DNA of 32,000 nucleotides from Nitratidesulfovibrio vulgaris str. Hildenborough (lineage in GTDB: Bacteria; Desulfobacterota; Desulfovibrionia; Desulfovibrionales; Desulfovibrionaceae): NCBI RefSeq assembly GCF_000195755.1, contig NC_002937.3, positions 390,001-422,000 on the forward strand. Reading direction: 5' to 3'. The position numbers and the translations under genes were made by a program. Below are positions 1,830-28,083 of this stretch, in pieces. The notes under the pieces are model-generated. The model did no database searches and was not told where the DNA came from. It saw nothing but the letters and a program-made list of their open reading frames with translations. How positions within the stretch are numbered: position 1 is the first letter of the stretch; the number at the start of each line of letters is the position of its first letter.

Positions 1830-3368
1830 TTATCTGTTGCGACGCAGTCTGCCGAGGGCGCGCGTGGCAAGCCCGGTCAGGTCGGCCCGTGTCAGGCCTG
1901 CGAGAGGCGGGAACAGGAGAACCCCGCCGCCTACGATGCACGAGTAGAGCACGCCCGAGACGAAGAAGCGGACGATGGCCGTGGCATCGCCGAGGCCCAT
2001 CGCCATCGTGCCCGTGCGGCACAGCCACGCCGCACCGACGAGGAAGGCCAGCGCCCCGGCCTGATGGGCGACGTTGCGCCAGAAGTGCATGGGTATCATG
2101 CGCGAGCCCACCCAGAGCATGAAATTGACGGAGACGAACTGGAGCAGCACGGTCTTGATGGCAAGCCCGGTGGCCCCGAGGCCGAAGCCGAAGTGCGAGG
2201 CAGGGGCAAGCAGCAGCCACGACATGCAGAACCCGATGCAGTACTCGGTGACGGCGATGTTGCGCATGGTGCGGGTGCGCCCCATGGAATAGAACACCGC
2301 GCCTGCCAGTTGCCCGTAGCCCTGATGCACGGGGTACAGGGCCATTATCTGCACAGGCACGATGGCCGCCGCATACTGCGCTCCGCCGAAGATGGCCACC
2401 ACGGCGGGGGCTTCGACGGCGGTGAAGCACGAGAAGTAGCCCGCCACGGTGAAGAGCAGGGGGGCGAAGCGGTCGAGCAGCCTGCCCATCTCCTTGAGGT
2501 CCTTGTTGCCGTAGGCGATGGACAGCTCGCGCATGACCAGCGGGGTCATGGCGGAAACGAACAGGAAGCAGGCGATGCCCACCTTCTGCGAGAGGGCGAA
2601 GAATCCCTGCTGCACGCTGCCTTCGAAGGTCTGGAGCAGCCAGCGTTCCGCCACGAGAAACACCGTTGAGGCCAACGCCTGCACGAAGAGGGGCGAACTG
2701 TACGTCCAGAATTCGCGGGTGTAGGCGCGTCGCGCCTCGCGGTCGAGAGTGAAGTCGGGCTTCTGCCAGCAGCCGCGCAGGACGAGGCCGAACCCCGCCG
2801 CCAGCAGGAGAAGCGTGGCGTACTGCTGCGCGAAGAGCACCCCCATGTTGAGCCACCCGGCCCAGAACAGTCCCGCAAGAACGGCCACGCTACCGAGGTT
2901 CACCGCCGTGCGCACCATCTCGCTGGAGACCGTGACACCCAGCGCGTCATTCATGGAACGCAGCACGCGCCCCCACCATGTGAGGAAGGCCCACAGCGCG
3001 GCCAGCGGCACTATCCATGCCGGAACACCCGGCAACAGCCAGTCGCCAAGCACAGGCACGAAGGCCAGCCCCGATGAGAGCATGGTCACCACCAGCATGA
3101 GGGCGGTGGCGCGAAGGTAGAAGGAGACGAGGCCGAATTCCTGCTGTCGCCGTGACAGGGCGTTGTAAAAGCAGGTCGAGGTGCCCATGTCGAGGAAGCC
3201 CGTGAACTGCTGGAACATGTTGGTGGCGAAACTGTAGTCGCCGTAGGCCTTGGGGCCGAGGGCGCGAGGCAGTATGGCCTCCATCGTCAGGTACACGGGG
3301 ATGCTGGCGACGTTGGCAAGCAGCTTGTAGGCGTAGCGTTTGGCGAGTGTCTGCTGGGGTTGGGCCAT
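1830..3368 (-). CDS. Oligosaccharide/polysaccharide flippase, Wzx-like (MOP superfamily)
   Basis: 512 aa with an ATG start, and hydrophobic throughout with many predicted helices. The N-terminal region KLLANVASIPVYLTMEAILPRALGPKAYGDYSFATNMFQQF is typical of polysaccharide-biosynthesis (Wzx/RfbX-type) transporters. Confidence 0.8.
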   Translation of the reverse strand: MAQPQQTLAKRYAYKLLANVASIPVYLTMEAILPRALGPKAYGDYSFATNMFQQFTGFLDMGTSTCFYNALSRRQQEFGLVSFYLRATALMLVVTMLSSGLAFVPVLGDWLLPGVPAWIVPLAALWAFLTWWGRVLRSMNDALGVTVSSEMVRTAVNLGSVAVLAGLFWAGWLNMGVLFAQQYATLLLLAAGFGLVLRGCWQKPDFTLDREARRAYTREFWTYSSPLFVQALASTVFLVAERWLLQTFEGSVQQGFFALSQKVGIACFLFVSAMTPLVMRELSIAYGNKDLKEMGRLLDRFAPLLFTVAGYFSCFTAVEAPAVVAIFGGAQYAAAIVPVQIMALYPVHQGYGQLAGAVFYSMGRTRTMRNIAVTEYCIGFCMSWLLLAPASHFGFGLGATGLAIKTVLLQFVSVNFMLWVGSRMIPMHFWRNVAHQAGALAFLVGAAWLCRTGTMAMGLGDATAIVRFFVSGVLYSCIVGGGVLLFPPLAGLTRADLTGLATRALGRLRRNR

Positions 3369-3663: not shown

Positions 3664-4335
3664 TCACGGCAAATGTCGTACCACGCGGGCGGGTACGCCC
3701 GCCACCAGTGTCGCGGGGGGAACGTCGCGTGTGACCACGCTGCCTGCCGCCACGATGGCTCCGTCACCGATGGTCACGCCCTTGAGCACGATGCAGCGCA
3801 TCCCCAGCCAGACATGTTGACCGATGGTCACGTCGGCATCGCGTTCGAAGGCGGGTGTGTCCAGCCGCGTCTCGGGGGGCCACATGGCGTGGAAGTCGGA
3901 GTCGGTGATGACGCAGTTGGGCGCGACCATGGTGCCCTTGCCGATGCGGATGGTGCGCGACCGGGCGGTGATGGCCGTGCCGTTGAGACTCACGCCGTCC
4001 TCGAGGATGATGCGTGCCGTGGGCGCGAAGGTGCGAAGTCGCGTGGGGGCGTGGATGGTGGCAGAAGTGCAGCGCCGTGACGAGGAGATGATGCTCACCC
4101 CGTCGCCGAGTTCGATGCGGCTGCCCGGCCAGCGCGAGAGGATGACCGTGCCGAAGCACTCGCAGCCCTTGCCGACGGTGATGCCGAGGCAACCGGCCTT
4201 GGCCCGCAGCATGAGCGTGCCCCATGCCCCGGAAAGCAGGCGATGCCCCGCGATACAGCCGTAGCTGAAGAGGTCGCGCGGGGTGAGGCCGCGGTCGCGT
4301 ATCTTGTGCAGTGCGTTGCGAAGTCTGCCGGACAT
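3664..4335 (-). CDS. Hexapeptide-repeat (left-handed beta-helix) acetyltransferase, WcaF/maltose-O-acetyltransferase-like
   Basis: 223 aa with imperfect hexapeptide repeats: IELGDGVSIISS, ILEDGVSLNGTAITARSRTIRIGKGTMVAPNCVITDSDFH, VTIGQHVWLGMRCIVLKGVTIGDGAIVAAGSVVTRDVP. It starts 18 nt downstream of the preceding gene. Confidence 0.8.
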   Translation of the reverse strand: MSGRLRNALHKIRDRGLTPRDLFSYGCIAGHRLLSGAWGTLMLRAKAGCLGITVGKGCECFGTVILSRWPGSRIELGDGVSIISSSRRCTSATIHAPTRLRTFAPTARIILEDGVSLNGTAITARSRTIRIGKGTMVAPNCVITDSDFHAMWPPETRLDTPAFERDADVTIGQHVWLGMRCIVLKGVTIGDGAIVAAGSVVTRDVPPATLVAGVPARVVRHLP

Positions 4336-4353: not shown

Positions 4354-6078
4354 CTAGAGGGTCCGCAGGGTCTGCGTCCATACCCTGTCGAAATCGTCGT
4401 CGGTGGTCAGGGCATAGCGGGCGGACCACCGGGCGCGTGCCTCGCGTACCGGGGCGGAGTGCCACCAGCCGGGAACGTCGTCCCAGATGCGGGCGATGTG
4501 CGCTGCCGCAGCCGCAGGGGTGCGGTGATAGATGCCCGCCTCCTCAAGCCAGCCGAGGGCCTCTTCCGTCTCGGGGCACACGCGCCAGTGTTGCATGTTC
4601 CAGAACAGCACCATGGGTACGTCGGCGGCCATGGCCAGTTCAAGGGTTGTGCCGTGGTGGTCGAGGACAAGCAGACGGCAACGGAGCATGTGGTCGTCGA
4701 GGCTGCCCGTGCAGCGTTCCACGTCAGGCACCCGTCGCAGCACCCATGGCGCGTCTTCGAGTCCGCTACGGGTCTCGAAGTAGGGCCGGTACAGGGTGGC
4801 CTTGCGGGTGGCTTCGGGCAGGGCTTCGAGGAACGTCACCTTGTCGTTGCGGTAGTGCGTGAATTCGAAAGGCTGCGGCTTGGAGTCGAGTCTGTAGTTG
4901 AAGGTACTCATCTCCGCGCCCACGAGGATGAGCCTGCCGCTTTCGTCCCGGTGCCTGCCGCGCAACTCCTGAAGCTGCGCGTGGGGCACGGGTACGAAGT
5001 TGCCCTTGTGCGGCCCGTGCGAGGTCCACCCCCATGTGAGGAAGGCGTGCTGGTTGTACTCGTAGACGGGCGATGTGCCGTAGGTGCGGACATGCCCGTA
5101 GTTGCCGCCATGCTGGATGAAGACCAGCCGGGTGCCGGCAGCGCGTGCGGCGGCGAGATGAAAGCGGTAGGGGTCGTCGTAGAAGCTGGCGACGCTGGCG
5201 ACACGGATGCCGGGACGGGCAGCGGGCTTCACGCGGCGCGGGAGCGGCGTGGTGTAGAAGCTGCGCGGGATGGACGGCAACAGTACCGTGTCGGGGTCGA
5301 AGCACCACTGCGGCATCCTGCCCCGCAGCCTGTCGAGGGGTATCGTGTTGTCGGCGGAGTTGCGGTTGGCCATGAGGGCCAGCGAATACAGCAGCGAACG
5401 ACGGGTGGAGAAGCCCTTCACGCGGGGGAATGGCAGTTTGTAGAGCAGGGTGCGCGCCATGTGGCGCAAGCCCTTCTCGGGAGCGCCGCAATGGCGCGTG
5501 ACGGGTTGCGCCCAGCGCACGGTCCACGCCGCCGGGACCATGCCCTCGATCATGCGCGAGAAGACCCAGTGGTTGAACAGGTTGTCCTGTGCGCCGTGGA
5601 GGACGAAATCGTGCGTCGAGTGGAAGGAGAAGGCGCAGTCGCCGGGCAGCAGGGTGACTTCAAGTTCTTCGTCACCGAAGAGGCGTAGCATGTCCTGTAC
5701 GCGACGTTGCCGTTCCACCAGCAACTGTCCGCAGAGTGCCAGCCACGGGATGAGGGCCACCTCCCAGAAGGCGCGTGGCAGGTCGGCACCGTGGTGCGCG
5801 CCCAGCCGCAGGGCGATGTCGTCGATGCGGCTGATGGCATAGGTGTGGGCCTCGTCCTGCGCTTGTGCCAGAAGGTCGGGGTCGGCGAAGGGCGGCGGGC
5901 AGATGGTGAAGGATGTCTCCCAGCCGGGAAAGCGTTCCTCCTGACCGGCGAAGGCCCACGGCCCCGCCATGATATGCGTCTCGGGCGTGGCGTCTTCGGG
6001 GGCGGCCCCGAGGACGAGGACGCGGCGTGCGGTGCTGTCGCTCATGGATGTGACCTGCGCCGCCGTGCCGTGGGGCAC
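4354..6078 (-). CDS. Large uncharacterised protein; putative glycosyl (ulosonic-acid?) transferase, possibly of the LIC12162/TIGR04331 type
   Basis: 574-aa ORF embedded in the operon. The start is either GTG at 6078 or ATG at 6045 (MSDSTARRVLVLG). The C-terminal half has GT-B-like patches: LVFIQHGGNYGH, RLILVGAEMS, LLVLDHHGTTLELAMAADVPMVLFW. I recognise no canonical family motif; the family guess is recollection only. Confidence that it is a real CDS is about 0.85; the value given is for the functional call. Confidence 0.4.
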   Translation of the reverse strand: MPHGTAAQVTSMSDSTARRVLVLGAAPEDATPETHIMAGPWAFAGQEERFPGWETSFTICPPPFADPDLLAQAQDEAHTYAISRIDDIALRLGAHHGADLPRAFWEVALIPWLALCGQLLVERQRRVQDMLRLFGDEELEVTLLPGDCAFSFHSTHDFVLHGAQDNLFNHWVFSRMIEGMVPAAWTVRWAQPVTRHCGAPEKGLRHMARTLLYKLPFPRVKGFSTRRSLLYSLALMANRNSADNTIPLDRLRGRMPQWCFDPDTVLLPSIPRSFYTTPLPRRVKPAARPGIRVASVASFYDDPYRFHLAAARAAGTRLVFIQHGGNYGHVRTYGTSPVYEYNQHAFLTWGWTSHGPHKGNFVPVPHAQLQELRGRHRDESGRLILVGAEMSTFNYRLDSKPQPFEFTHYRNDKVTFLEALPEATRKATLYRPYFETRSGLEDAPWVLRRVPDVERCTGSLDDHMLRCRLLVLDHHGTTLELAMAADVPMVLFWNMQHWRVCPETEEALGWLEEAGIYHRTPAAAAAHIARIWDDVPGWWHSAPVREARARWSARYALTTDDDFDRVWTQTLRTL

Positions 6079-6097: not shown

Positions 6098-7156
6098 CTA
6101 TTCGAGATGGCCCCATTTCAGGACGGTGTCTTCGGCGATGTCGGCGCGTGCCTTCATGCCCACGACCTCGTCATAGCAGCGGGGGCTGATGCCGTGGGCC
6201 GGACGCTTCCACGTCAGGTCGGCGGGTTCGAGCACCTTGCCCGCGGGAATGGCGCGGGCGGCCACGAGGCTGCGGCGGGCGTTGCGGCGTGCCGGTTCCT
6301 CGGAGGGCAGCGAGGTGATGTTGCACGGGCCCACCATGCCGGTGACGCGCTCCATGTTCGTGCGGAAGACCTTGAGGTCGTCCTTGTCCATGGCGTGGTA
6401 GTGGTCGTTGCCCGGCAGGGTCTTGTCGTGGCTGAAGTGCTTTTCGAGGATGGTCGCACCGAGCAGCGTGGCCACTTCGAGCACCTTCATGTCACGCGGG
6501 AGGGTGTGGTCGGAATAGCCGATGAGGTGCTGCGGGAAGTGCTGGCGCAACACGGGGATCATGCCGAGGCCCGCGTTCACGTCGTCGGTGGGGTAGTTCA
6601 GCACGCAGTGCAGCAACGCCAGCGGGTTGCCCTTCTCTTCGATCCACGACACGGCCTCTGCGATCTCATGCAGGTAGGCGGCCCCGGTGGAGAGGATGAT
6701 GGGCTTCTTGAAGTCGCACAGGAAGCGGATGAACGGCTTGTTCGTGATGTCCGACGAGGAGATCTTGAACACGTCCATGAGATCGTCGAGGAAACCTGCC
6801 GACTCCACGTCGAACGGCGTGGAGAGGAACTCGATGCCCGCCGTGTCGCAATGTCGCTTCAGGGCCTCGAACTCGCCCTTCCAGAACTTGTCGTGGCGGG
6901 TGAACAGCTCGTACTGGCTCTTGGTGGGTTCCTTGGTGGTGTCCCAGTAGGCCGGAGAGTCCTTGGATGCGAGCGTGGCCGCCTTGTAGGTCTGGAACTT
7001 GATGGCGTCGGCACCGCCTTCGCACGCCTCGTCGATGAGGCGGCGCGCGATGTCCATGCTGCCTTCGTGGTTCACGCCCGCTTCGGCGATGACATAGGGC
7101 CGTGCGATGCCGTCGGCGGGGACGGGGCGGTGTGCGAACAGTTCGAGAAGTTTCAT
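6098..7156 (-). CDS. N-acetylneuraminate-synthase-family enzyme (NeuB/PseI/LegI/SpsE type) with C-terminal SAF domain
   Basis: 352 aa. Motifs: YVIAEAGVNHEGSMDIARRLIDEA, GADAIKFQTY, PIILSTGAA, GYSDHT. The C-terminal SAF-like stretch is RRSLVAARAIPAGKVLEPADLTWKRPAHGISP. A strong RBS (GGGAGGAGCACG) precedes the ATG. Confidence 0.9.
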   Translation of the reverse strand: MKLLELFAHRPVPADGIARPYVIAEAGVNHEGSMDIARRLIDEACEGGADAIKFQTYKAATLASKDSPAYWDTTKEPTKSQYELFTRHDKFWKGEFEALKRHCDTAGIEFLSTPFDVESAGFLDDLMDVFKISSSDITNKPFIRFLCDFKKPIILSTGAAYLHEIAEAVSWIEEKGNPLALLHCVLNYPTDDVNAGLGMIPVLRQHFPQHLIGYSDHTLPRDMKVLEVATLLGATILEKHFSHDKTLPGNDHYHAMDKDDLKVFRTNMERVTGMVGPCNITSLPSEEPARRNARRSLVAARAIPAGKVLEPADLTWKRPAHGISPRCYDEVVGMKARADIAEDTVLKWGHLE

Positions 7157-7192: not shown

Positions 7193-7876
7193 TTATGCCG
7201 TGCGGGGGAGCATGGCGACCAGCTCCTCCGGGGTGATGTCGGGATGGATGTCCATAAGGGCGAGGTACCGGTAGTCGGCGGGCGTGTCCATGTCCAGTTT
7301 GAGGTCGGGACGGTGCAACGCCGGGTCGGCCGGGTCGAAGGTACGTATGGTGTAGCGTTCGGGGTGCGCCCAGATGAACGACAGGCAGTGCTCGCGGTGT
7401 TCGGGCAGCGTCGCCTCGCGGGCCACTTCCTCGAGCAGTGCGAACGAGAGCGTCTCCGCCCCGAGACCGTCGGGGTAGAGGTTGCCGCGCGGGATGTGGT
7501 TGTAGGCGTAGTCGCACCCCTCGGCCCGCCAGAAGCGGATGAGGTCGTCGATGGCACCGCCCCAGATGAGCGGGTTGTCGGCGCACACGCGCACCACCTG
7601 CTCTGCGCCGTAGGCAGCCCCGGCGAGGCGGAAGCGTTCGAGCACGTCGTCTTCCGGCCCGCGGAACACCGCCACCCCCTGCCGGGAGAGGTGATGTTCG
7701 AGGATGTCGTTCTCGGGCTGCGTGGAGGTGGCTACCACCACCTCGTCGACGAGGGTGGCACGGCGTACGCGGCGCACGACCCAGTCGATGACGGGCAGGC
7801 CGTGCAGCGAGAGCATCATCTTGCAGGGCAGGCGGCTGGAACCGAGGCGTGCCTGTATGAGGGCTACGGTCTTCAT
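7193..7876 (-). CDS. SpsF-like cytidylyltransferase (CTP_transf_3 family)
   Basis: 227 aa. The N-terminus KTVALIQARLGSSRLPCKMMLSLHGLPVIDWVV is the SpsF/FlmC-type nucleotidyltransferase signature. Its ATG overlaps the upstream stop as ATGA (7873-7876). Confidence 0.8.
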   Translation of the reverse strand: MKTVALIQARLGSSRLPCKMMLSLHGLPVIDWVVRRVRRATLVDEVVVATSTQPENDILEHHLSRQGVAVFRGPEDDVLERFRLAGAAYGAEQVVRVCADNPLIWGGAIDDLIRFWRAEGCDYAYNHIPRGNLYPDGLGAETLSFALLEEVAREATLPEHREHCLSFIWAHPERYTIRTFDPADPALHRPDLKLDMDTPADYRYLALMDIHPDITPEELVAMLPRTA

Positions 7877-9507
7877 GCGTTCTCCGGTGCGGGGGTGTCG
7901 TCGAGCAGCGCGGTGATGCGGCGTACCACGTCGGCCTTGTTGCGGATGAAGTCGAACCGCGCCTGCCTGTCGAACAGACGGCGGCGGTTTCCGGCGTCGA
8001 GAAGCTGGGTGAACACGCGGGTGAGCTTGGCCCCGTCGAAGTGCTCCATGACGCCGAGGTAGGCGAAGCCGTTGCGTCCGCGGGCGAAGGTGTGCCGCCC
8101 CTCCCGTTCGTGATGGGCCATGACGATGGCAGGCACGCGCATGTGCGCCAGTTCATACACCGTGCGTCCGGCGGAACAGATGGCGAGGTCGGCCCCCTCC
8201 ATCATGCGGGACATGACGTTGGTGGCGTAGGTGAACTCCACGAGGGGCGAACCAAGCCGTTCCACATGTTCCTGCATGGCGTCCTTGTGGGCGTAACCTG
8301 GGCCCGCCACAAGCCGGATGGTGATGCCGCGTTCGCGGCACAGCGGTTCGATGGCGTCGAGGGTGCCACGGCTGAAGTCGGAGTGGTCGGTGCCGCCGAA
8401 GGTGACAAGGACGCAACGCACCGGGTCGCGATAGTCGTTGCGAACGCCGTTGACGAATTCGTCGCGCAGGCAGAAGAAGCGGTGCCCGTGCAGGAAACGC
8501 GGGTCGTCGACCTTCTCCTCGTACAGGGCGTTGACCACAAGGTCTGCCAGATGCGCGCCGGGCCCTTCGTCCTCGAAGTTGACCACGCGCACACCCGCCT
8601 CCCTGAGGCGGCCCACATAGTCGGCATCGGTGTTGAGGATGTCGTTGATGACGAGGTCGGGTCGCAGGGACAGTACATCCGCCGCAAGGTCGTCGCCCTG
8701 CTGCACCCGCGTACGGTAGTCGCGTGCGGCGATGTTGCTGGCTGCAAGCTCGCTTTCACGGGTGCACAGGAAGGTGATGCGGTGGTCGGCCACCTCGTGT
8801 GCCAGCATCAGCGCACGGAAGATGTGTCCCATGCCGATGGCGGGGTAGCCCGCCACCACGAACACGATGTGCTTGCGGCAGAGCAGCTTCTCGCAGATCC
8901 ACCAGTCCTGGTAGCTGTTTATCTCGATGGCCCGGTCGTTGAGGAAGTAGGGGACGACCTTGCGTACCTCGCCGCGGGTCAGCGCCGAGGCGTCGAGCAT
9001 GACCAGTGCCTTGCTCTCGACATAGATGGAAGGTTCGGTCTCGTCCTGCGACAGCAGGGCGTCGAGTCCCCCGTTGCGCTTCTCCCACACGCGGTGGCGC
9101 ACGCTCTTGACGGTGACGAGGCAGTCGGCCCCTTCGCGCAGGAAGGTGGCGTAGGCGTCTTCGATGTCGTCGGCGGTGAGCAGGGGGCAGCTTGCGCGGT
9201 AGATGACGATATGCCCGTAGCTGCGGGCGAGGTCTTCAAGAACGCCGCGCAATTCGCGCACGATGTCCAGCGTGGCGAGATGCAGTCCGGGGTTGCACAC
9301 ATGGCGCACCCCGTTGCGTTCGCAGATGAGGGCGATTTCCTGACTGTCGGTGACGACCACGATGTCGTCGCCGGGGGCAAGCGCCTTGGCGGTGTCGATG
9401 GCACGCTGGATGAGCGTCACCCCCGCCAGCCGTTTCACCAGCTGGTCGGGGATGACCGCGTTCTTCTTGACCGCGGGGATGACGACGCAGCGTCGCGTGT
9501 CGCTCAT
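7873..9507 (-). CDS. Fusion protein: N-terminal acylneuraminate-type cytidylyltransferase domain plus C-terminal PseG-like (SpsG / GT28-C fold) nucleotide-sugar hydrolase domain
   Basis: 544 aa. Residues about 1-215 (CVVIPAVKKNAVIPDQLVKRLAGVTLIQRAIDTA ... VIYRASCPLL) look NeuA/PseF-like. From about residue 220 I read HIVFVVAGYPAIGMGHIFRALMLAHEV (PseG GxGH-R-LA motif), VLVTFGGTDHSDF and GADLAICSAGRTVYELAHMRVPAIVM (PseG/MurG C-terminal pattern). Confidence 0.75.
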   Translation of the reverse strand: MSDTRRCVVIPAVKKNAVIPDQLVKRLAGVTLIQRAIDTAKALAPGDDIVVVTDSQEIALICERNGVRHVCNPGLHLATLDIVRELRGVLEDLARSYGHIVIYRASCPLLTADDIEDAYATFLREGADCLVTVKSVRHRVWEKRNGGLDALLSQDETEPSIYVESKALVMLDASALTRGEVRKVVPYFLNDRAIEINSYQDWWICEKLLCRKHIVFVVAGYPAIGMGHIFRALMLAHEVADHRITFLCTRESELAASNIAARDYRTRVQQGDDLAADVLSLRPDLVINDILNTDADYVGRLREAGVRVVNFEDEGPGAHLADLVVNALYEEKVDDPRFLHGHRFFCLRDEFVNGVRNDYRDPVRCVLVTFGGTDHSDFSRGTLDAIEPLCRERGITIRLVAGPGYAHKDAMQEHVERLGSPLVEFTYATNVMSRMMEGADLAICSAGRTVYELAHMRVPAIVMAHHEREGRHTFARGRNGFAYLGVMEHFDGAKLTRVFTQLLDAGNRRRLFDRQARFDFIRNKADVVRRITALLDDTPAPENA

Positions 9508-9514
9508 GCGGCGG

Positions 9515-10696
9515 CTATCCCTTGCGGAGGGTTTCGAGCACGTCGATGGTCGAGGCGAGCATGTGGTCGAACTCGCCTTCTGTCAGCCAGTGCTGGAACG
9601 GGAAGGAGACCATGTTGTCGAAGAAGAGGTCGGCGTTGGGGCAGTCCGCCGTGCCGAAGCCCAGTTTCTTGTAGAACGGGTAACGGTCGAGCGGGTAGTA
9701 CTGCACCACGCACTTCACGCCCTTCTCGTCATGCATGGCGCGGATGAAGTCGTCGCGCCTGCCGTTGGTCATGCGGGCGGCCAGCAGGTGGTAGTTGTGG
9801 CGGGTGGTGTCCACCCGGTGGAATTCGAGTTCGGGGTAGTCCGCCAGCGCGTCGATGAAGCGTATGGCGCGTTCGCGCTTCTCGGCGTTGATGCGGGAGA
9901 CGCGTTCAAGCTGTTTGATGCCAAGCGCGCACTCTATCTCGCCGATGCAGTAGTTGTTGGGCCACAGGAACTCGCCATCGATTTCGGGCATGTCCACGTT
10001 GCCCATGGCGGGCTTCCAGTAGTCGGGGCGCTCGAAGTCGAAGCCGCAATGCCCGTTGTGGCGCAGGGCGGGCACCAGCTTCGCCAGTGCGGGGTCCTTC
10101 ACCACGAGCATGCCCCCCTCGCCGAGGGTGGTCATGTTCTTGTGCGAATGGAACGAATAGATGGCGAAGTCGCCGAAGGCACCGGACATGACGCCGTCGA
10201 TGTCCGCGCCGATGGACTGCGCGGTGTCTTCGACGACCAGCAGGTTGTGCCTGCGCGCGAGGTCCATGATGGCGGGCATGTCGGCCACGTAGCCGTACAG
10301 GTGCACCACGACGATGGCCCTGGTGCGCGGCGTGAGCACCTTCTCGATGCTCTCGGCGGTGACGACGCGGGTGGCGAGGTCGATGTCGGCCCACACCAGT
10401 TTCGCCCCCTTCTTGGCGAAGGGATAGGCCGAAGCGGTGAAGGTGTGTGACGGGATGATGACCTCGTCACCGGGGCGGAAGCGGCAAAGCTGGGCCGAAA
10501 GCTCCAGTGCCGAGACGCCGTTCATGACTGCGAAGCTGTGCTCCACACCGATGAACCGGGAGAACCTCTGCTGGAATTCCTGCATGTAGCGGCCCTGCGT
10601 GAGCGTCTCCGCATTGCGCATGGCGTCCACCACGGTGGCGATTTCCTCTTCGGTGTACCTGAGGGCGCGACCGCTGAAATTGACCTTGAGTTCCAT
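9515..10696 (-). CDS. DegT/DnrJ/EryC1/StrS-family PLP-dependent sugar aminotransferase
   Basis: 393 aa. Motifs: FAVMNGVSALELS, DEVIIPSHTFTASA, LLVVEDTAQSIGA, and the catalytic-lysine segment AIYSFHSHKNMTTLGEGGMLV. An AGGAG RBS lies upstream of the ATG. Confidence 0.9.
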   Translation of the reverse strand: MELKVNFSGRALRYTEEEIATVVDAMRNAETLTQGRYMQEFQQRFSRFIGVEHSFAVMNGVSALELSAQLCRFRPGDEVIIPSHTFTASAYPFAKKGAKLVWADIDLATRVVTAESIEKVLTPRTRAIVVVHLYGYVADMPAIMDLARRHNLLVVEDTAQSIGADIDGVMSGAFGDFAIYSFHSHKNMTTLGEGGMLVVKDPALAKLVPALRHNGHCGFDFERPDYWKPAMGNVDMPEIDGEFLWPNNYCIGEIECALGIKQLERVSRINAEKRERAIRFIDALADYPELEFHRVDTTRHNYHLLAARMTNGRRDDFIRAMHDEKGVKCVVQYYPLDRYPFYKKLGFGTADCPNADLFFDNMVSFPFQHWLTEGEFDHMLASTIDVLETLRKG

Positions 10697-10829
10697 CCGT
10701 CAGACTCCTGATGTGTCCTGCCGGGAGGGTTGCTGCGTGGGCCGACCGGGTGTTCCGCCTGTCCCGGTGGCGGTATGGCATGGTCGCGGGAGGGTGTCCC
10801 CCCGCGACCCGGTATGCGTGGACGCGCCG

Positions 10830-11903
10830 CTACATGGCCTTGAACAGGGAGATGACCTTCTCGCGGGTGAGGATGTCGCGGAAGCCGGGGCCGAGGGCGT
10901 TGGTCAGCGGCTTCTCGTGCACCACCGACGAGGCGACGAGGGACTCGTACTGCGCGTCGGTGAGGTTCGCGCACAGCCCCTTGGGCAGTGTGACGCCCTG
11001 ACGTTCCATCATGGCCACGAAGTGCTTGTGGTCTTCGGGGTAGAACTCTTCGAGCACGCTCATGGCATGGCAGTTGGCGATGCCGTGGTGGGCGTGCAGC
11101 ACCACCGAAAGACCGGCGGAGATGGGATGGATGACGCCCACGTTGCCTGCGCTCATGCCGCCGAGGTACGAGGCTATCATCATCTTCTCGAGATTCTCGT
11201 CGCTCATCATGTCGTCGGAGAGGAAGATGTCGAGGCACATGCCCACGGCCTTCTCCGCCAGCGCGTCGATGATGACGTTGCGGTAGCTGCCCCGCAGCGA
11301 CTCGATGCAGTGCATGTAGGTGTCCATGCCCGTGTAGAAGTACTGGTCGCGGGGTACGGTGCGGGTGAGTTCAGGGTCGAGCAGCAACTGGTCGTACATG
11401 GTGAAGTCGCTGTTCATGCCCAGCTTGATGCCGCGCTGCACGTTGGTGAGCACGCAGGTGCGCGAGCATTCGGCCCCGGTACCCGAAAGGGTGGGTACGC
11501 CTATCTTGTAGACGGCGGGGAACTTCACGAGGTCCCAGCCCTGATAGTCTTCGGCCTTGCCGGGGTTGGTGAGCATGTTGGCCACGGCCTTGGCGGTGTC
11601 CAGCACGGCACCGCCGCCGATGCCCACCACGCAGCAGGGCTGGCGGTCGTCGTCGGCGCGTATCGCGGCGGTGAAGGCGTCGATGTCGGTGGTCTTGGGT
11701 TCTTCGGTGGTGTCGACGAAGTGCAGCTGGTCGCCCTGCTGCATGGGCAGACGGTCTATGAGGTCGTGCCCGCGGAAGAAGTGGTCGACGAAGAAGACGA
11801 CGGGGCCCTTTTCGGCACGGCGTTCCGCCAGCAGGTCGCCCAACTGGGCGAACGAGCCTTTGCCGAAGACATAGTAGGGAACGTTCTTTGTATTGCGGTA
11901 CAT
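10830..11903 (-). CDS. Iron-containing (group III) alcohol dehydrogenase-family oxidoreductase; first gene of the operon
   Basis: 357 aa. NAD-binding motif VVGIGGGAVLDTAKAV. Metal-ligand His clusters GMDTYMHCIESL and VIHPISAGLSVVLHAHHGIAN. An AGGAG RBS lies 8 nt upstream of the ATG. Confidence 0.9.
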   Translation of the reverse strand: MYRNTKNVPYYVFGKGSFAQLGDLLAERRAEKGPVVFFVDHFFRGHDLIDRLPMQQGDQLHFVDTTEEPKTTDIDAFTAAIRADDDRQPCCVVGIGGGAVLDTAKAVANMLTNPGKAEDYQGWDLVKFPAVYKIGVPTLSGTGAECSRTCVLTNVQRGIKLGMNSDFTMYDQLLLDPELTRTVPRDQYFYTGMDTYMHCIESLRGSYRNVIIDALAEKAVGMCLDIFLSDDMMSDENLEKMMIASYLGGMSAGNVGVIHPISAGLSVVLHAHHGIANCHAMSVLEEFYPEDHKHFVAMMERQGVTLPKGLCANLTDAQYESLVASSVVHEKPLTNALGPGFRDILTREKVISLFKAM

Positions 11904-12376
11904 GCTGCAAACTCCTGATGGTTGCGAGGGGGTGGGCCGCAGTGGTGCATTCTAGGGACAATCATCGATGCGGGCAAGCGCACCCTGCGTCGTTCACTGG
12001 ATGTTGTCGTGACGTCGCGTGCGGCGTCGTGCCTGCCGGGTGGCAGGTACGCATTCCGGTTGTCTCGGTGATGTGCTGTGGGATGGGGGCATGGCCTTCG
12101 CCCCTCCGGGGTGGCGTCGTGGCCCGATGTCTCTCCGGGTCGTCCAGACCGCCGGAGAGATGGAGAAGATGTCTGGACGGCGCACAGATAGGGAGAAGCG
12201 GTGATGAAGTCAATGCCCCCTGCGGGGCCGCGTCGGACGTGGCTTGCAGGTCGTCGGTCATGGAGTCGGTCAGGGATGCGGAGAAGGGCTGTCTTGTGGA
12301 TGGACGGGGTGATCGTCCGGCGTATGGGGGGCAAGACAACGGTGCGTGTGCGTGCTATGGAAAAATCGTCTTGGCC

Positions 12377-15471: not shown

Positions 15472-16047
15472 ATGACCGAACCGTTCCGGTGTCCGTGGGC
15501 ACGAAGCCCTGAAGAAGTACTTTACCACGATACGGAGTGGGGCGTGCCCAGTCGTGACGACAGGGTCCACTTCGAGTTTCTCATCCTTGAGGCGGCGCAG
15601 GCCGGATTGAGCTGGCTGACGGTGCTTCGCAAGCGTGAGGGGTATCGCCGTGCCTTCGCCGCGTTCGACCCCGAAGCCGTGGCCCGCTTCGGCCCTGCCG
15701 ACGTGGCACGGCTCATGGCCGACGCGGGCATCGTCCGCAATCGCCTCAAGATAGAATCGGCCATCCATAACGCAGGGCCTTTCCTGCGTCTTGCCGAGCG
15801 ACACGGTTCCTTTGCGGCGTGGTTATGGGACTTCGTGGATGGGCGACCTGTCGACGGTCGGCGGGAGAGTCTCGCCGACGTCCCCGCCACGACGCCACTC
15901 GGCGAGAAGGTGAGCAGGGCACTCAAGGCCGAGGGGTTCCGCTTCGTGGGGCCCACGGTGGTCTACGCCCATTTGCAGGCCACGGGGCTCGTCAACGACC
16001 ATCTCGTGACCTGCTTCCGCCATGAGGCGGTGGCAGGGCTTGCGTGA
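15472..16047 (+). CDS. tag: DNA-3-methyladenine glycosylase I
   Basis: 191 aa. Motifs: RCPWARSPEEVLYHDTEWGVPSRDDRVHFEFLILEAAQAGLSWLTVLRKREGYRRAFAAFD and VVYAHLQATGLVNDH. A GGAGGGG RBS is present. Confidence 0.95.
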   Translation: MTEPFRCPWARSPEEVLYHDTEWGVPSRDDRVHFEFLILEAAQAGLSWLTVLRKREGYRRAFAAFDPEAVARFGPADVARLMADAGIVRNRLKIESAIHNAGPFLRLAERHGSFAAWLWDFVDGRPVDGRRESLADVPATTPLGEKVSRALKAEGFRFVGPTVVYAHLQATGLVNDHLVTCFRHEAVAGLA

Positions 16048-16100
16048 GGGCGCAACAGGTGTTCAACCCCGTCGGCAGGCGGGTGCACAATGAGGCTGGC

Positions 16101-16976
16101 ATGACAGACCCCCGGTACATGGCTCTATTGCTCGACATCGCCGCCCGCAAGGAACGCGGGGCCCTTCTCGAAGTGGACGACCCGTACCCTTGGCAGCCCC
16201 GCCCTCGCTGGGGGCATGGCAATGCCCCTCATGCCGCATTGCGCGACCTGTTCGATGCGCGGCGCAGCGAGTACATCCCCCTGCTTGATGCCATGGTAGC
16301 CCATGCCGGACGGTTCGCCGCCATACGGAGAGACTTCGATGCCTCCGCACCGCATGAACCGCACTGGGACAACGGCTGGCTACCCTCACTGGACGGCATG
16401 TCCATCTACACGCTGCTGGCACAGATGCGTCCGTCACGCTTCGTAGAGGTGGGGTCGGGCAATTCGACACGGTTCGCCGCACGCGCCATACGCGATTGCG
16501 GGCTTGCCACGCGCATCGTCTCCATCGACCCTGCCCCGCGTGCCGAGGTTGACAGGCTGTGCCATGAGGTGGTGCGTGCCCCGCTGGAGAACGTGGATAT
16601 GGCGTTCTTCGACACCGTGACGGCGGACGACCTCGTCTTCGTCGACTGCAGCCACAGGGCGCAGCAGAACTCCGACGTGACGGTCTTCTTCCTTGAGATG
16701 CTGCCCCGGTTGCCCGTCGGGTGCGTTGTGGGCATCCACGACATCTGCCTGCCGCTGGACTACCCGCCGGGGTGGGAGGGGCGCTACTACAATGAACAGT
16801 ACATGCTGGCGACGCTGCTTCTCTTCGGGGCGGAACGCTTCAGCCTGCTGCTGCCGGGGTACCATGTCTCCACGACGCCCGACCTCGCCGCACGGCTTGC
16901 CCCCCTTGCCGCCCTTCCGGGGCTTGCAGGGCTGCCCTGCGCCGGGAGCGTGTTCTGGATGCGGAAAAGGGCGTGA
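16101..16976 (+). CDS. Class I SAM-dependent methyltransferase (Methyltransf_24-like)
   Basis: Motif I is FVEVGSGNSTRFAARAI; downstream are LVFVDCSHRAQQNSDV and VVGIHDI. The ATG at 16101 has a GAGG 5 nt upstream. The ORF is also open from a GTG at 16044, which overlaps the tag stop as GTGA. Confidence 0.6.
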   Translation: MTDPRYMALLLDIAARKERGALLEVDDPYPWQPRPRWGHGNAPHAALRDLFDARRSEYIPLLDAMVAHAGRFAAIRRDFDASAPHEPHWDNGWLPSLDGMSIYTLLAQMRPSRFVEVGSGNSTRFAARAIRDCGLATRIVSIDPAPRAEVDRLCHEVVRAPLENVDMAFFDTVTADDLVFVDCSHRAQQNSDVTVFFLEMLPRLPVGCVVGIHDICLPLDYPPGWEGRYYNEQYMLATLLLFGAERFSLLLPGYHVSTTPDLAARLAPLAALPGLAGLPCAGSVFWMRKRA

Positions 16977-17019
16977 TGCCCTGCCCGATGTCCGCCCGCG
17001 CTGCACGCCAATGCGAAAA

Positions 17020-17041
17020 GGCCACGGATTTCTCCGTGGCC
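17020..17041. terminator. Bidirectional intrinsic terminator shared by the methyltransferase gene (+) and tRNA-Thr (-)
   Basis: 9-bp stem GGCCACGGA / TCCGTGGCC with loop TTTC. It is flanked by AAAA on the 5' side and TTTCTATTC on the 3' side, so each strand reads hairpin followed by a U-rich tract. Confidence 0.7.
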
Positions 17042-17051
17042 TTTCTATTCA

Positions 17052-17127
17052 TGGAGCCCATGAGCAGAATTGAACTGCTGACCTCATCCTTACCAAGGAT
17101 GTGCTCTACCGACTGAGCCACATGGGC
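17052..17127 (-). tRNA. tRNA-Thr (anticodon GGU)
   Basis: The reverse complement reads GCCCATG TG GCTC AGTCGGTA GAGC A CATCC TTGGTAA GGATG AGGTC AGCAG TTCAATT CTGCT CATGGGC T CCA. This is a perfect 76-nt cloverleaf with encoded CCA. Confidence 0.95.
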
Positions 17128-17341
17128 GTCGTGCGACGGGATTCCGTCGGGCGGAGGATGAGCTAGCTTTTTTTGTCGTGACCGTCAACCCCTTGGCCGT
17201 CCATACCATTCACTGAAACGGGGATGGAGCGTGCAACGGAGTGGTTTCTGTCATATGGCATATGAATTGCTATCGTTTTGCCGGTGGCGACACCCCGTCG
17301 TCCCTTGTCTGACAGCCAGCGCCACTCTGCCGGGAGATGCC

Positions 17342-18085
17342 ATGGAACAGGGCTTCGATGCACTCGATTTCACGAGACTTGAACTGATGCGTAACGCCGA
17401 AGTGACAAGACTTGCCGAAGCGGACTATCTCGAACGCGAAATCCTTCCCGGACTCGGGCTGAACGGGGAGAAGCTGCACCAGTTTCCTGCCCATCTGCAC
17501 ACCTTCTGCGGGCAAGGGTTGCGTTCGTGGCAATACCCCAATCAATTCGGGCGATACCTTGCCACCATCGCACGTTTTCCAGTGCAGACCTATGTCGAGA
17601 TAGGCGTGCGGCATGGCGGGACGTTCGTGGTGACGCTCGAATACCTGCGCCGTTTCAATCCCCTTGTGCGAGGGCTTGGCATCGACATCTTCAGGTCGCC
17701 CGCCCTCGAAGCCTACCGCGAGCACAATCCCAGGGCCGCCTTCCTGCAAGTGGACAGCCGTAGCGAACGTTTCCGGCGTCTTGTGGACGACTATCCGGTC
17801 ATAGACCTCGCCTTCATCGACGGAGACCACTCGTTCGATGCCGTGCGGAGTGATTTCGCCCTTCTCCATGGCAAGGCACGGCTCATCGGCTTTCACGACA
17901 TCGTCAACGACGATGCGCCGGGTTGTCCGGAGGCATGGCAGAGCATCCGGTTCGAACATGCCCGCGACTATGTCTTCATGGAGTTCACGGAACAGTACTT
18001 CGATACGGTGCGCCATAACGGCATGACGTTCCTTGGCATCGGCCTCGCCATCAGACGCGACACGCTTCCCGCCGCGCGGGCATGA
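17342..18085 (+). CDS. Class I SAM-dependent methyltransferase (Methyltransf_24 / CmcI-like fold)
   Basis: The start is taken at ATG 17342 (MEQGFD), with a GGAG 5 nt upstream. Motifs: YVEIGVRHGGTFVVTLEYL, LAFIDGDHSFDAVRSDF, LIGFHDI. Confidence 0.6.
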   Translation: MEQGFDALDFTRLELMRNAEVTRLAEADYLEREILPGLGLNGEKLHQFPAHLHTFCGQGLRSWQYPNQFGRYLATIARFPVQTYVEIGVRHGGTFVVTLEYLRRFNPLVRGLGIDIFRSPALEAYREHNPRAAFLQVDSRSERFRRLVDDYPVIDLAFIDGDHSFDAVRSDFALLHGKARLIGFHDIVNDDAPGCPEAWQSIRFEHARDYVFMEFTEQYFDTVRHNGMTFLGIGLAIRRDTLPAARA

Positions 18086-27072: not shown

Positions 27073-27149
<77 letters not shown>

Positions 27150-27157
27150 GAATCGCA

Positions 27158-27190
27158 AGCGCGTATGGGAACACCCCATACGCGCTTTTC
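27158..27190 (+). terminator. Intrinsic terminator after tRNA-fMet
   Basis: 12-bp stem AGCGCGTATGGG / CCCATACGCGCT, loop AACAC, followed by TTTC. Confidence 0.75.
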
Positions 27191-27319
27191 GCGTATGCGG
27201 CGGTGTCTTGTTGCTTCCTCGTCCCTGTTGTCATTTCTCCCATTTTTTGTGCTCTGCGAGCATGTCCTTCGCGTCGTGCATGGGCTTTGGCTGTGCGTGC
27301 GCTGTGAGGGTTGTCGGGT

Positions 27320-27356
27320 GTCACACAAGTTGAGAAAATGCGTCACGCAAGTTGAG
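27320..27356 (+). repeat. 15-bp direct repeat (GTCACRCAAGTTGAG) x2 at 22-bp spacing in non-coding DNA
   Basis: gtcacacaagttgag (27320-27334) and gtcacgcaagttgag (27342-27356), with a partial third copy gtcacgc at 27419-27425. An 8-bp hairpin GGCGCACA/TGTGCGCC plus a T-rich run follows at 27380-27410. Confidence 0.5.
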
Positions 27357-28055: not shown

Positions 28056-28083
28056 TTTTCAGTAAAATGCTTGCAGCATGGAG

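Follow-up and report, generated by a model that had tools for sequence, protein, structure and literature searches.

The first two genes of an eight-gene operon, lying on the minus strand of the window (the whole stretch of 32,000 nucleotides of Nitratidesulfovibrio vulgaris str. Hildenborough DNA that was analysed), encode an iron-type alcohol dehydrogenase (Fe-ADH) resembling KdnB of Shewanella oneidensis and a DegT-family aminotransferase. Our favoured reading, held with modest confidence, is that this pair would supply the amination step of an operon making and exporting a surface glycan with a modified nonulosonic acid. The operon product is probably an undescribed amino sugar acid destined for the cell surface, and oxidation followed by transamination on a nonulosonate pathway is a prediction well supported by homology and gene context. 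No published characterisation of a pair of this type, or of its clade, was found in the literature. Both open reading frames lie where the preliminary description had placed them, on the same strand and separated by 133 nt (10697..10829), and its family calls of a group III Fe-ADH and a DegT aminotransferase were borne out by Pfam (PF00465 and PF01041); domain matches likewise recovered the cytidylyltransferase, PseG-like and NeuB-family genes that it had described downstream on the same strand. In the order of the operon, the features are:

11949..11977, minus strand: sigma-70-like promoter match, TTGCCC-17-TAGAAT, 9/12 matches, some 46 nt ahead of the Fe-ADH start codon
10830..11903, minus strand: gene 1, predicted group III metal/NAD-dependent sugar-acid dehydrogenase of the KdnB-like clade, 357 aa
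10782..10809, minus strand: 12-bp G+C-rich hairpin without a U-tract, in the 133-nt spacer, 21 nt past the Fe-ADH stop
9515..10696, minus strand: gene 2, DegT/DnrJ/EryC1-family PLP aminotransferase, predicted partner of the KdnB-like enzyme, 393 aa
7873..9507, minus strand: gene 3, fusion of a divergent N-terminal cytidylyltransferase-like domain and a C-terminal PseG-like GT-B hydrolase domain, 544 aa
7193..7876, minus strand: gene 4, SpsF/FlmC-like cytidylyltransferase, 227 aa (CTP_transf_3, 82.6 bits)
6098..7156, minus strand: gene 5, NeuB-family nonulosonate synthase with SAF domain, 352 aa
4354..6078, minus strand: gene 6, LIC12162-family transferase, 574 aa (TIGR04331, 331.7 bits, cut-off 225)
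3664..4335, minus strand: gene 7, hexapeptide-repeat acetyltransferase of the WbbJ/Maa/LacA type, 223 aa
1830..3368, minus strand: gene 8, Wzx-like polysaccharide flippase, 512 aa (Polysacc_synt), the last gene, after a 295-nt gap

The promoter match before the Fe-ADH gene is suggestive at most, three sigma-70-like sites having been found in the region against 1.3 expected. The hairpin is statistically unremarkable in such G+C-rich DNA (spacer MFE z-score of -1.31), and an AGGAG lies upstream of the aminotransferase ATG. No SDR 4,6-dehydratase of the PseB/LegB/SpsM type was found in the window operon; a copy may lie elsewhere in the genome.

The Fe-ADH carries the motifs VVGIGGGAVLDTAKAV, YMHCIESL and VLHAHHGIANC and matches PF00465 (E 1.9e-28) and ADH_Fe_C (PF25137). 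Of the solved structures, that of S. oneidensis KdnB (5k8c; E 2.6e-100, 339 bits, residues 2-355) matches it best, with 48% identity over the full length and clear of all other solved Fe-ADHs (95 bits or less); the grouping with ordinary alcohol or propanediol dehydrogenases that the preliminary description had named as a possible refutation did not materialise. In an alignment of seven sequences D194, H198, H259 and H273 are invariant and were assigned by us as the putative metal ligands, G96-G98 and D102 of the GGGxxxD dinucleotide loop are conserved, and together with the domain matches the alignment gives the protein a group III Fe-ADH fold whose metal site would be Asp/His/His/His. Only 118 clusters (50% identity) were recovered at E<=1e-30 among 1.84 billion representatives, and KdnB-like Fe-ADHs therefore constitute a discrete subfamily.

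Within this subfamily, a neighbour-joining tree of 84 sequences picked for similarity to the query placed the window Fe-ADH outside the clade of Shewanella KdnB itself (clade 2) and in a sister clade (clade 1; 100/100 bootstraps), which occurs in Actinomycetota too. Identity to Shewanella KdnB is 39-47% for clade-1 members as against 55-64% for members of the KdnB clade. Clade-specific substitutions, all 100% fixed per clade, were found beside the invariant His259 (P260 vs A, A263 vs Y) and at two further positions (N154 vs G, L333 vs W), and appear compatible with a changed substrate. KdnB is classed as an O2-dependent oxidase and the clade is common in strict anaerobes, an observation that counts against the proposal; the redox chemistry may therefore differ from that of KdnB. 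Family and clade membership, like the conserved catalytic motifs and the conserved gene linkage described below, are direct observations.

The aminotransferase carries the motif YSFHSHKNMTTLGEGG and matches DegT_DnrJ_EryC1 (PF01041, E 3e-87, 293.6 bits), with K186 in SFHSHK, invariant across the subfamily, as the Schiff-base lysine of a fold-type I PLP enzyme. Among NCBIfam models it reaches 231 bits for PseC (cut-off 423) and 171 for the LegC family (cut-off 420), and perosamine synthetase leads the solved structures with 176 bits; that it scores best against PseC/perosamine-synthase-type enzymes, for many of which the substrate is a nucleotide-linked 4-keto sugar, weighs against the proposal. 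KdnA (5k8b) ranks only 21st at 118 bits and identity to KdnA orthologues is 25%, by which the protein was ruled out as a KdnA orthologue; for contrast, the KdnA scores at loci L077 and L044 are 535 and 264 bits. The KdnB/KdnA pair suggested in the preliminary description thus stands as regards a KdnB-like Fe-ADH and falls as regards the aminotransferase, which belongs to a different DegT subfamily. It is 54-72% identical to its cluster partners in other phyla and belongs to a conserved DegT subfamily that, by its constant adjacency, is the dedicated partner of the KdnB-like enzyme; a sister group of clusters pairs a KdnA-like enzyme with NeuB.

At 36 of the 37 clade-1 genome loci that could be assessed, the next gene after the KdnB-like one encodes an aminotransferase, and a KdnB-like gene lies upstream of a window-type aminotransferase gene in 78/78 metagenome loci with room upstream, a pairing far beyond chance. 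An SpsF-like cytidylyltransferase gene was found near the clade-1 gene in 23 of 26 loci and NeuB within 9 kb in 15 of the 26, these being every non-Desulfovibrionaceae locus with room; the linkage to SpsF-like and NeuB genes extends over at least six phyla. Several Desulfovibrio genomes contain a four-gene core with no NeuB adjacent, and genomes of this kind encode a 75-76% identical NeuB elsewhere, beside a LIC12162 gene. Clade 2, the true KdnB clade, adjoins KdnA orthologues and KdsB-type cytidylyltransferases, and KdnA-KdnB-KdsB triads were seen only there (L077); in the window, the partners that make up the three-gene cluster for 8-amino-Kdo (Kdo8N), a KdnA orthologue and a KdsB-type cytidylyltransferase, are both missing. 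The linkage of the window's clade to NeuB and cytidylyltransferase genes, and not to KdsB, fits the suggestion made earlier that the NeuB product or its precursor is aminated.

Window-type aminotransferases and the cytidylyltransferase/PseG fusion mostly occur together, with the fusion absent from L046 and L050, and clusters with a KdnA-like aminotransferase are without it. Minimal clusters of the latter kind in Ilumatobacteraceae and Dechloromonas consist of a KdnB-like gene, a KdnA-like aminotransferase (top solved match KdnA, 264 bits), a small GT2, NeuB and a cytidylyltransferase; neither nucleotide-hexose tailoring genes nor a nucleotide-sugar hydrolase were found in them, which suggests that the substrate is the NeuB product or a simple sugar. 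Fusions of a cytidylyltransferase to LIC12162 (Dechloromonas L047, an 836-aa ORF) and of NeuB to a cytidylyltransferase tie the remaining cluster genes into one pathway. At the Chlorobium locus (L030) the KdnB-like gene is accompanied by the fusion, the cytidylyltransferase and NeuB, with no aminotransferase within 10 kb, and in Gallionella an SDR epimerase/dehydratase gene lies directly upstream of the cluster; both loci speak against the proposal. No SDR 4,6-dehydratase was found in the cluster of C. concisus, which starts right after argS, or in that of N. termitidis.

Of the downstream products, the fusion protein (NTP_transf_3, CTP_transf_3 and Glyco_tran_28_C domains) matches the PseG model TIGR03590 over residues 213-464 with 115 bits (cut-off 153.55), and the GxGHxxR motif, whose His we take to be catalytic as in C. 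jejuni PseG, is invariant as GMGH[IV][FY]R in nine fusion proteins from six phyla; an N-terminal IPAxKK...D.LVKKLAG motif is also kept across phyla. The constant presence of this PseG-like hydrolase in the core module runs counter to the proposal, in that oxidation and amination could come earlier, on a nucleotide hexose. The SpsF-like protein, with its canonical N-terminal IQARLGSSRLPCK and cytidylyltransferase 6oew as top solved relative (76 bits), is a probable CMP-ulosonate synthetase, SpsF being a cytidylyltransferase by published prediction. The NeuB-family protein matches PF03102 (230 bits) and the SAF domain PF08666 (62.8 bits), reaches 310 bits for NeuB_NnaB (cut-off 400) and 220 for PseI (cut-off 340), and scores just 130-162 bits against solved NeuB, SpsE and PseI (top 1vli SpsE, 162) as against 367-567 bits for cluster-linked NeuBs of other phyla; by these scores it is a member of a subfamily co-occurring with the KdnB-like clade. 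The LIC12162-family protein, a putative transferase of the CMP-activated sugar acid, exceeds its curated NCBIfam cut-off, PF27859 being recorded on its orthologues; a search of solved structures returned no relative, and in D. falkowii and a related MAG its gene and NeuB form a pair. The acetyltransferase is not part of the core (its C. concisus counterpart reaches just 36 bits), and flippase homologues occupy the same position in the C. concisus, Ozemobacteraceae and Dechloromonas clusters. PseF models reach 24-34 bits (cut-off 206) against the window proteins, and none of the PseC/LegC, PseG, PseI/NeuB and PseF equivalogs was found in the operon at curated thresholds.

In the proposed route, the KdnB-like metal- and NAD-dependent Fe-ADH would oxidise one hydroxyl group in a 3-deoxy-2-ulosonic acid, by analogy with the action of KdnB on C8 of Kdo most likely that of C9, the terminal primary alcohol, in the NeuB product, and the adjoining DegT-family PLP aminotransferase would turn the resulting carbonyl into an amine. 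The PseG-like domain would free the hexose from its nucleotide sugar, NeuB would join hexose and PEP, the SpsF-like enzyme would form the CMP-sugar, the LIC12162-family protein would transfer it, and Wzx would flip the lipid-linked unit. In this scheme we infer what the substrate is, which carbon receives the amine, where the steps fall relative to NeuB, what the N-terminal cytidylyltransferase-like domain does and which glycan results. Amination of the free NeuB product has a little under an even chance; action on the nucleotide-linked hexose precursor is improbable, and so, in like measure, is action on something else, and action on the CMP-linked nonulosonate is slightly more improbable again.

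A different placing of the same two enzymes, which we regard as unlikely, would have the Fe-ADH stand in for the SDR 4,6-dehydratase and oxidise a nucleotide-linked hexose at C4 or C6, followed by PseC-like amination, removal of the nucleotide by the PseG-like domain and condensation of the amino hexose with PEP by NeuB. The product would then be a nonulosonate with its amine at C7 or C9 and with oxygen still in place at C9 or C7. The genes map one-to-one on B. subtilis SpsM-C-D-G-E-F, the dehydratase excepted, and the PseC and perosamine synthetase scores of the aminotransferase, the intact GxGHxxR motif in the conserved core and the usual company of the window-type aminotransferase with the fusion all fit this placing. 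However, KdnB, the nearest characterised relative, uses a free ulosonic acid and not a nucleotide sugar, the same KdnB-like clade serves the minimal clusters that lack a nucleotide-sugar hydrolase, and the fusion does not accompany the window-type aminotransferase of L046 and L050.

Rather improbable is a conventional PseC/LegC-type aminotransferase fed by a remote 4,6-dehydratase, in which no extra amino group would be introduced and the Fe-ADH would perform a separate redox step, such as reduction or epimerisation via a keto intermediate, with the nonulosonate or its precursor as substrate. Such a step would suit the tightly bound NAD(H) reported for KdnB in its structure paper, a feature typical of enzymes with redox-neutral cycles, and the resemblance of the aminotransferase to PseC and SpsC agrees with it, as do the Chlorobium and Gallionella loci. 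The strict gene pairing nevertheless weakens this alternative, which the preliminary description had itself raised: the adjacency holds at 36/37 and 78/78 loci, it persists even though the aminotransferase family switches between window-type and KdnA-like, and the window, N. termitidis and C. concisus clusters contain no dehydratase.

Very improbable is a genuine Shewanella-type system in which the pair turns the inner-core Kdo of LPS into 8-amino-Kdo and the NeuB genes are unrelated. The 48% identity to KdnB and the Desulfovibrio cores without adjacent NeuB would agree with it, but the window protein falls in a separate clade, its partner is not a KdnA orthologue, there is no KdsB-type cytidylyltransferase here, true triads being seen in clade 2, NeuB orthologues are kept elsewhere in the genome where they are not adjacent, and the clade is present in Actinomycetota, which lack LPS. 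An ordinary alcohol or aldehyde oxidoreductase beside a glycan operon by chance, as might be read from generic Fe-ADH Pfam and NCBIfam matches that all fall under equivalog cut-offs, is effectively refuted by the KdnB-specific homology and by synteny conserved in at least six phyla.

Extended beyond the window, amination of a nonulosonate by the KdnB-like pair would mean that the whole clade, with either of two aminotransferase families, makes an undescribed class of amino-nonulosonic acids using a dehydrogenase that does not depend on O2 in vivo, a generalisation that we put forward tentatively and hold to be less probable than its opposite. If true, the products would be, for example, 9-amino-9-deoxy sialic-acid-like sugars, zwitterionic when unacylated, carried by human gut Desulfovibrio and Bilophila, oral Campylobacter concisus, green sulfur bacteria, iron oxidisers and freshwater Actinomycetota; strict anaerobes being numerous among the carriers, members of the KdnB family would work in vivo as dehydrogenases that use a different electron acceptor or have a coupled redox partner, and the question would arise how enzymes supposed to depend on O2 can function in such hosts. 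Nonulosonic acids (sialic, legionaminic, pseudaminic) shape the recognition of bacterial surfaces by immune lectins, phages and cationic peptides. Net charge could fall if an acidic surface sugar carried one more amine, and Kdo8N reportedly shields Shewanella from polymyxin in this way. To our knowledge, all established bacterial routes to the amino groups of nonulosonates begin with a nucleotide hexose and an SDR dehydratase; a KdnB-type route of hydroxyl oxidation and transamination would be a new biosynthetic logic, probably with a new sugar. The gene-to-glycan hypothesis is direct and testable in culturable N. termitidis, D. falkowii, D. desulfuricans and C. concisus, and would correct the automatic 'Kdo 8-oxidase' label now on thousands of genes.

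Among known systems, the Kdo8N system of S. oneidensis comprises KdnB (Kdo 8-oxidase, 5k8c), KdnA (8-oxo-Kdo aminotransferase, 5k8b; 8-amino-3,8-dideoxy-alpha-D-manno-octulosonate transaminase, EC 2.6.1.109) and KdsB, and the window operon would by analogy share with it the Fe-ADH-fold oxidation of a 3-deoxy-2-ulosonic acid hydroxyl, DegT amination and activation by a cytidylyltransferase. The KdnB reaction is described as oxidation of Kdo at C8, with NAD(H)/Zn tightly bound to the enzyme and O2 accepting the electrons in the end. The window operon differs in that the Fe-ADH is of the sister clade and is paired with another DegT subfamily, in having NeuB, SpsF-like, PseG-like, LIC12162 and Wzx partners instead of KdsB and LPS-core genes, and in its anaerobic host lineage, whereas KdnB is catalogued as an O2-dependent oxidase. 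With the legionaminic acid pathway of B. subtilis (SpsM, SpsC, SpsD, SpsG, SpsE, SpsF) it shares an SpsC-like aminotransferase, an SpsG/PseG-like domain, an SpsE/NeuB-like synthase and an SpsF-like cytidylyltransferase, but it is headed by a KdnB-like Fe-ADH and lacks an SpsM-type 4,6-dehydratase, its PseG-like domain shares a protein with an additional cytidylyltransferase-like domain, and none of these proteins reaches an NCBIfam equivalog cut-off. The canonical pseudaminic acid pathway (PseB, PseC, PseH, PseG, PseI, PseF) likewise has an aminotransferase, a nucleotide-sugar hydrolase, a PEP-condensing synthase and a CMP-activating enzyme, whereas the window operon is without PseB and scores 231/423, 115/153.55, 220/340 and 24-34/206 for PseC, PseG, PseI and PseF, respectively. 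The LIC12162 protein, above its curated cut-off and encoded beside NeuB, recalls the nonulosonate loci of the Leptospira type for O-antigen, and a gene annotated as kdnB has been reported in L. interrogans strains.

Eight closely packed genes, headed by that for the KdnB-like iron-type alcohol dehydrogenase (Fe-ADH), lie in series on the window's minus strand.

Genes of the operon in the window, listed in operon order
11903..10830, minus strand: Fe-ADH, 357 aa; first gene
10696..9515, minus strand: DegT aminotransferase, 393 aa; 133-nt spacer after the Fe-ADH gene
9507..7873, minus strand: fusion protein, 544 aa; 7-nt gap after the aminotransferase gene
7876..7193, minus strand: cytidylyltransferase, 227 aa; 4-nt overlap with the fusion gene
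7156..6098, minus strand: NeuB-family synthase, 352 aa; 36-nt gap after the cytidylyltransferase gene
6078..4354, minus strand: LIC12162-family transferase, 574 aa; 19-nt gap after the NeuB gene
4335..3664, minus strand: hexapeptide acetyltransferase, 223 aa; 18-nt gap after the LIC12162 gene
3368..1830, minus strand: Wzx-like flippase, 512 aa; 295-nt gap after the acetyltransferase gene

Every motif quoted in the preliminary description was found in the window, and its gene families were confirmed using Pfam and NCBIfam. None of the core proteins reached an NCBIfam equivalog cut-off and no equivalog was assigned, the LIC12162-family transferase being the sole exception to pass its cut-off (332 bits, cut-off 225). 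The C-terminal domain of the fusion protein is PseG-like (115 bits, cut-off 153.55) and retains the GxGHxxR motif, while the N-terminal domain is cytidylyltransferase-like, divergent yet conserved (IPAxKK...LVKKLAG). The 227-aa cytidylyltransferase has the canonical IQARLGSSRLPCK loop and is SpsF-like; SpsF of B. subtilis is a predicted cytidylyltransferase, whose gene is dispensable for legionaminic acid synthesis but needed for transferring the sugar to the spore surface. The WbbJ/Maa-like acetyltransferase is not kept between clusters.

The 133-nt spacer contains a 12-bp G+C hairpin at 10782-10809 lacking a U-tract, and AGGAG is located just 5' of the aminotransferase ATG. The fold energy of this spacer was no better than that of shuffles and is ordinary for such a composition, promoter and terminator scans gave results close to background, and an Rfam search returned two tRNAs and nothing else. 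The G+C content of the operon (0.62-0.68) is the same as that of its flanks. Among named organisms, Nitratidesulfovibrio species are the closest relatives, N. termitidis (81% identity) having all eight genes in unchanged order. The proteins of metagenome contig Ga0302253_1000811 (L086) are nearly identical to those of the window over the whole operon, with a 100% identical aminotransferase, and this contig probably derives from the same organism. Elsewhere in the window, two Methyltransf_24/CmcI-like methyltransferase genes (16044-16976 and 17231-18085, both plus strand), which could encode sugar O-methyltransferases, surround tRNA-Thr (17052-17127, minus strand) and are separated from the operon by GGDEF and Tag genes. 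A tRNA-Met (27073-27149, plus strand) is followed by a dip in G+C to 0.49 at 28-29 kb, where long ORFs at 28412-29836 (plus strand) and 28547-30418 (minus strand) gave no Pfam match; the region 27073-30500 may be an island integrated beside the tRNA.

Searched against all PDB sequences, the Fe-ADH matched S. oneidensis KdnB, the Kdo 8-oxidase (5k8c), best (E 2.6e-100, 339 bits, residues 2-355), followed by an unnamed Fe-ADH entry (3rf7, 337 bits), below which scores fall off, methanol dehydrogenases reaching 95 bits and lactaldehyde and propanediol reductases less. The preliminary description had proposed a KdnB/KdnA-like pair and had set against it a grouping of the Fe-ADH with ordinary alcohol or propanediol dehydrogenases; the drop from 339 to 95 bits therefore sides with KdnB, and the reading as an ordinary alcohol dehydrogenase was rejected on this KdnB-specific similarity. 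The two proteins are 48% identical, an identity to a solved structure by which the predicted fold is already settled, and a 7-sequence alignment shows the GGG...D loop to be invariant, as are D194, H198, H259 and H273, four residues which we take to be the metal ligands. KdnB itself is reported to have bound NAD(H)/Zn and to depend on O2. A search of 1.84 billion representatives brought up only 118 clusters (50% identity) at E<=1e-30; at this level the 90% library contains more than 7,700 sequences, many of them auto-labelled 'Kdo 8-oxidase' by JGI.

A total of 80 genome loci (designated L) were retrieved using the KdnB-family alignment and their ORFs were searched using the window operon proteins. 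Shewanella KdnB and sequences from loci picked by similarity to the query, 84 in all, were placed in a neighbour-joining tree, which separates at its midpoint into two clades, a split recovered in 100/100 bootstraps. Clade 1, to which the window protein belongs (52-81% identity to it, 39-47% to KdnB), includes further Desulfovibrionaceae (some of them MAGs labelled Bilophila or Lawsonia), together with Campylobacter concisus, Nautiliales, Chlorobium, Gallionella, Dechloromonas, Acidiferrobacteraceae, Thioglobus, Thiomargarita, Ozemobacteraceae, Chthoniobacterales and Ilumatobacteraceae. Clade 2 (55-64% identity to KdnB, 46-51% to the window protein) consists of Shewanella KdnB, Desulfobacteraceae, Nitrospiraceae and many Bacteroidota. 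Seven alignment columns, each essentially fixed, differ between the clades.

Alignment columns distinguishing the clades (window numbering)
Position 110: L in clade 1, M in clade 2
Position 154: N in clade 1, G in clade 2
Position 260: P in clade 1, A in clade 2
Position 263: A in clade 1, Y in clade 2
Position 322: L in clade 1, M in clade 2
Position 332: P in clade 1, L in clade 2
Position 333: L in clade 1, W in clade 2

Two of the seven flank the invariant His259, and the set probably marks an altered substrate pocket.

Neighbourhoods were scored by searching with the proteins of the window itself, which means that unrelated genes were sampled in few cases. On this basis, an aminotransferase gene immediately follows the KdnB-like gene in 36 of the 37 clade 1 loci with room for it. 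The one exception is a Chlorobium MAG (L030, 9947-14531), in which the KdnB-like gene is directly followed by the fusion, an SpsF-like gene and NeuB, with no aminotransferase within 10 kb. An SpsF-like cytidylyltransferase is present in 23/26 loci and NeuB lies <=9 kb away in 15/26, the latter comprising every non-Desulfovibrionaceae locus with sufficient flank. In many Desulfovibrio genomes, a four-gene core (Fe-ADH, aminotransferase, fusion, cytidylyltransferase) stands alone and the partner genes are kept elsewhere: in D. falkowii, a NeuB 76% identical to that of the window adjoins a LIC12162 gene ~390 kb from the core on the same scaffold, and in a related MAG the NeuB-LIC12162 pair and the core occupy separate sites on one 43-kb contig. 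Against the window NeuB, NeuBs linked to clade 1 reach 367-567 bits and solved NeuB, SpsE and PseI 130-162 bits, so that the window synthase, too, is part of a cluster-specific NeuB subfamily; the three solved enzymes score too alike to discriminate the nonulosonate type. Two fusions, of the SpsF-like cytidylyltransferase to a LIC12162-like transferase in Dechloromonas (L047, 14017-16524, 836-aa ORF) and of NeuB to CTP_transf_3 in Ozemobacteraceae (L045, 13769-15565, 599-aa ORF), tie the cytidylyltransferase, LIC12162 and NeuB functions into one pathway.

A near-copy of the window operon begins straight after argS in C. concisus, in the order KdnB-like, methyltransferase, aminotransferase, fusion, cytidylyltransferase, NeuB, radical-SAM/SPASM, acetyltransferase, LIC12162-like and Wzx, and an SDR dehydratase is absent from this cluster. 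The SAM methyltransferase gene between the KdnB-like and aminotransferase genes is seen in C. concisus L028, and the radical-SAM/SPASM gene after NeuB in both C. concisus and Gallionella; such tailoring genes (L028:11065-11706 and 16245-17228; L033, from Gallionella, 15921-17090) are missing from the window.

Among solved structures, the window aminotransferase, a DegT-family protein (293.6 bits), is closest to perosamine synthetases (176 bits). KdnA comes 21st in this comparison at 118 bits, with 25% identity to KdnA orthologues, and the enzyme is therefore not KdnA, so that the proposed KdnB/KdnA-type pair holds for its dehydrogenase (339 bits to KdnB) and not for its aminotransferase. Its subfamily is sharply conserved: members from different phyla are 54-72% identical, share many invariant blocks and contain an insertion of 14 residues that KdnA-type enzymes lack. 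In a metagenome scan, a KdnB-like gene was upstream in 78/78 window-type aminotransferase loci with room, a count covering close relatives of >=71% identity. A G+C hairpin with near-perfect pairing (TTGGAGGGGGCGGGAGGGCC...GCCCCTCCCGCCCCCTCCAA) lies 3' of the aminotransferase stop in the gut lineage of Bilophila type (L119:8195-8250). Of 80 metagenome loci, 39 (in the range L090-L150) end <=~90 nt past the aminotransferase stop; the break point falls in or just 5' of the hairpin in eight ends inspected and in the 21 mapping onto L119. These breaks probably arose during assembly, at an inverted repeat or a multi-copy element.

A second clade 1 group (Ilumatobacteraceae, Dechloromonas, Chthoniobacterales) has, in place of the window type, a KdnA-like aminotransferase, for which KdnA is the best solved match (264 bits; 37-39% identity to KdnA orthologues). 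Its minimal clusters comprise KdnB-like, aminotransferase, small GT2, NeuB and cytidylyltransferase genes, with no PseG-like gene. As the pairing persists while the aminotransferase family switches, this is the strongest argument for consecutive steps by dehydrogenase and aminotransferase. The five-gene cluster of a freshwater Ilumatobacteraceae member (L044, 9836-14726; GT2 of 226 aa; flanked by gltX/DUF218 and an MFS transporter), which L032, L037-L041 and L049 resemble, places a KdnB/KdnA-type pair in Actinomycetota, bacteria without LPS.

The model best supported by family membership, motifs and linkage, in which every substrate assignment is inferred, is as follows. The PseG-like domain would free a hexose from a nucleotide sugar and NeuB would condense it with PEP; the KdnB-like enzyme would then oxidise a hydroxyl of the NeuB product, by analogy the terminal CH2OH, and the aminotransferase would install the amine. 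The SpsF-like enzyme would make the CMP-sugar, which the LIC12162 protein would transfer, and Wzx would flip the unit. In the main rival model, it is the nucleotide hexose that would be oxidised and aminated, and the Fe-ADH would stand in for the 4,6-dehydratase of the Pse/Leg/Sps schemes. In its favour are the resemblance of the aminotransferase to PseC and the finding that window-type aminotransferase and PseG-like fusion mostly occur together. If the terminal carbon is attacked, the same kind of product is predicted from either order. A Shewanella-type LPS Kdo8N role is unlikely and was rejected, as the Fe-ADH falls in clade 1 rather than with Shewanella KdnB, KdnA and KdsB are absent from the window, NeuB is retained and the clade also occurs in Actinomycetota.

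Kdo8N is still termed a Shewanella hallmark in published text. In clade 2, a KdnA orthologue adjoins KdnB in strictly anaerobic Desulfobacteraceae (L056, L067, L068, L070, L076, L077). In a Desulfotignum MAG (L077, 8789-11818), whose KdnA orthologue scores 535 bits against 5k8b, the KdnA-KdnB pair is followed by a full-length KdsB-type cytidylyltransferase, which completes the KdnA-KdnB-KdsB triad; a GT1 is also among the neighbours, and the arrangement is that of the Shewanella Kdo8N genes. Because of these pairs and the full triad, Kdo8N is probably not restricted to Shewanella, and an O2-dependent 'oxidase' mechanism is hard to reconcile with strictly anaerobic carriers. Bacteroidota loci (L053-L085) have a KdnB-clade gene without an adjacent aminotransferase; in Maribacter vaceletii (L055, 7915-11650) it lies among a KdsB-type cytidylyltransferase, a HAD hydrolase and CAT-type and PlsC-type acyltransferases, a neighbourhood that suggests another fate for Kdo, oxidised or unoxidised.

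A literature search, part of which was swamped by kDNA/aminoquinoline texts, turned up no publication that places a KdnB-like enzyme in a NeuB cluster. With culturable carriers and an easily detected predicted mass shift, the window system is a good experimental lead. The Shewanella Kdo8N genes reportedly form a three-gene cluster, and Kdo8N reportedly protects Shewanella against polymyxin. The window system would work like KdnB/KdnA but differs from that pathway in clade placement and gene partners. The operon is similar to those of the Pse, Leg and Sps pathways, but is without their defining dehydratase.
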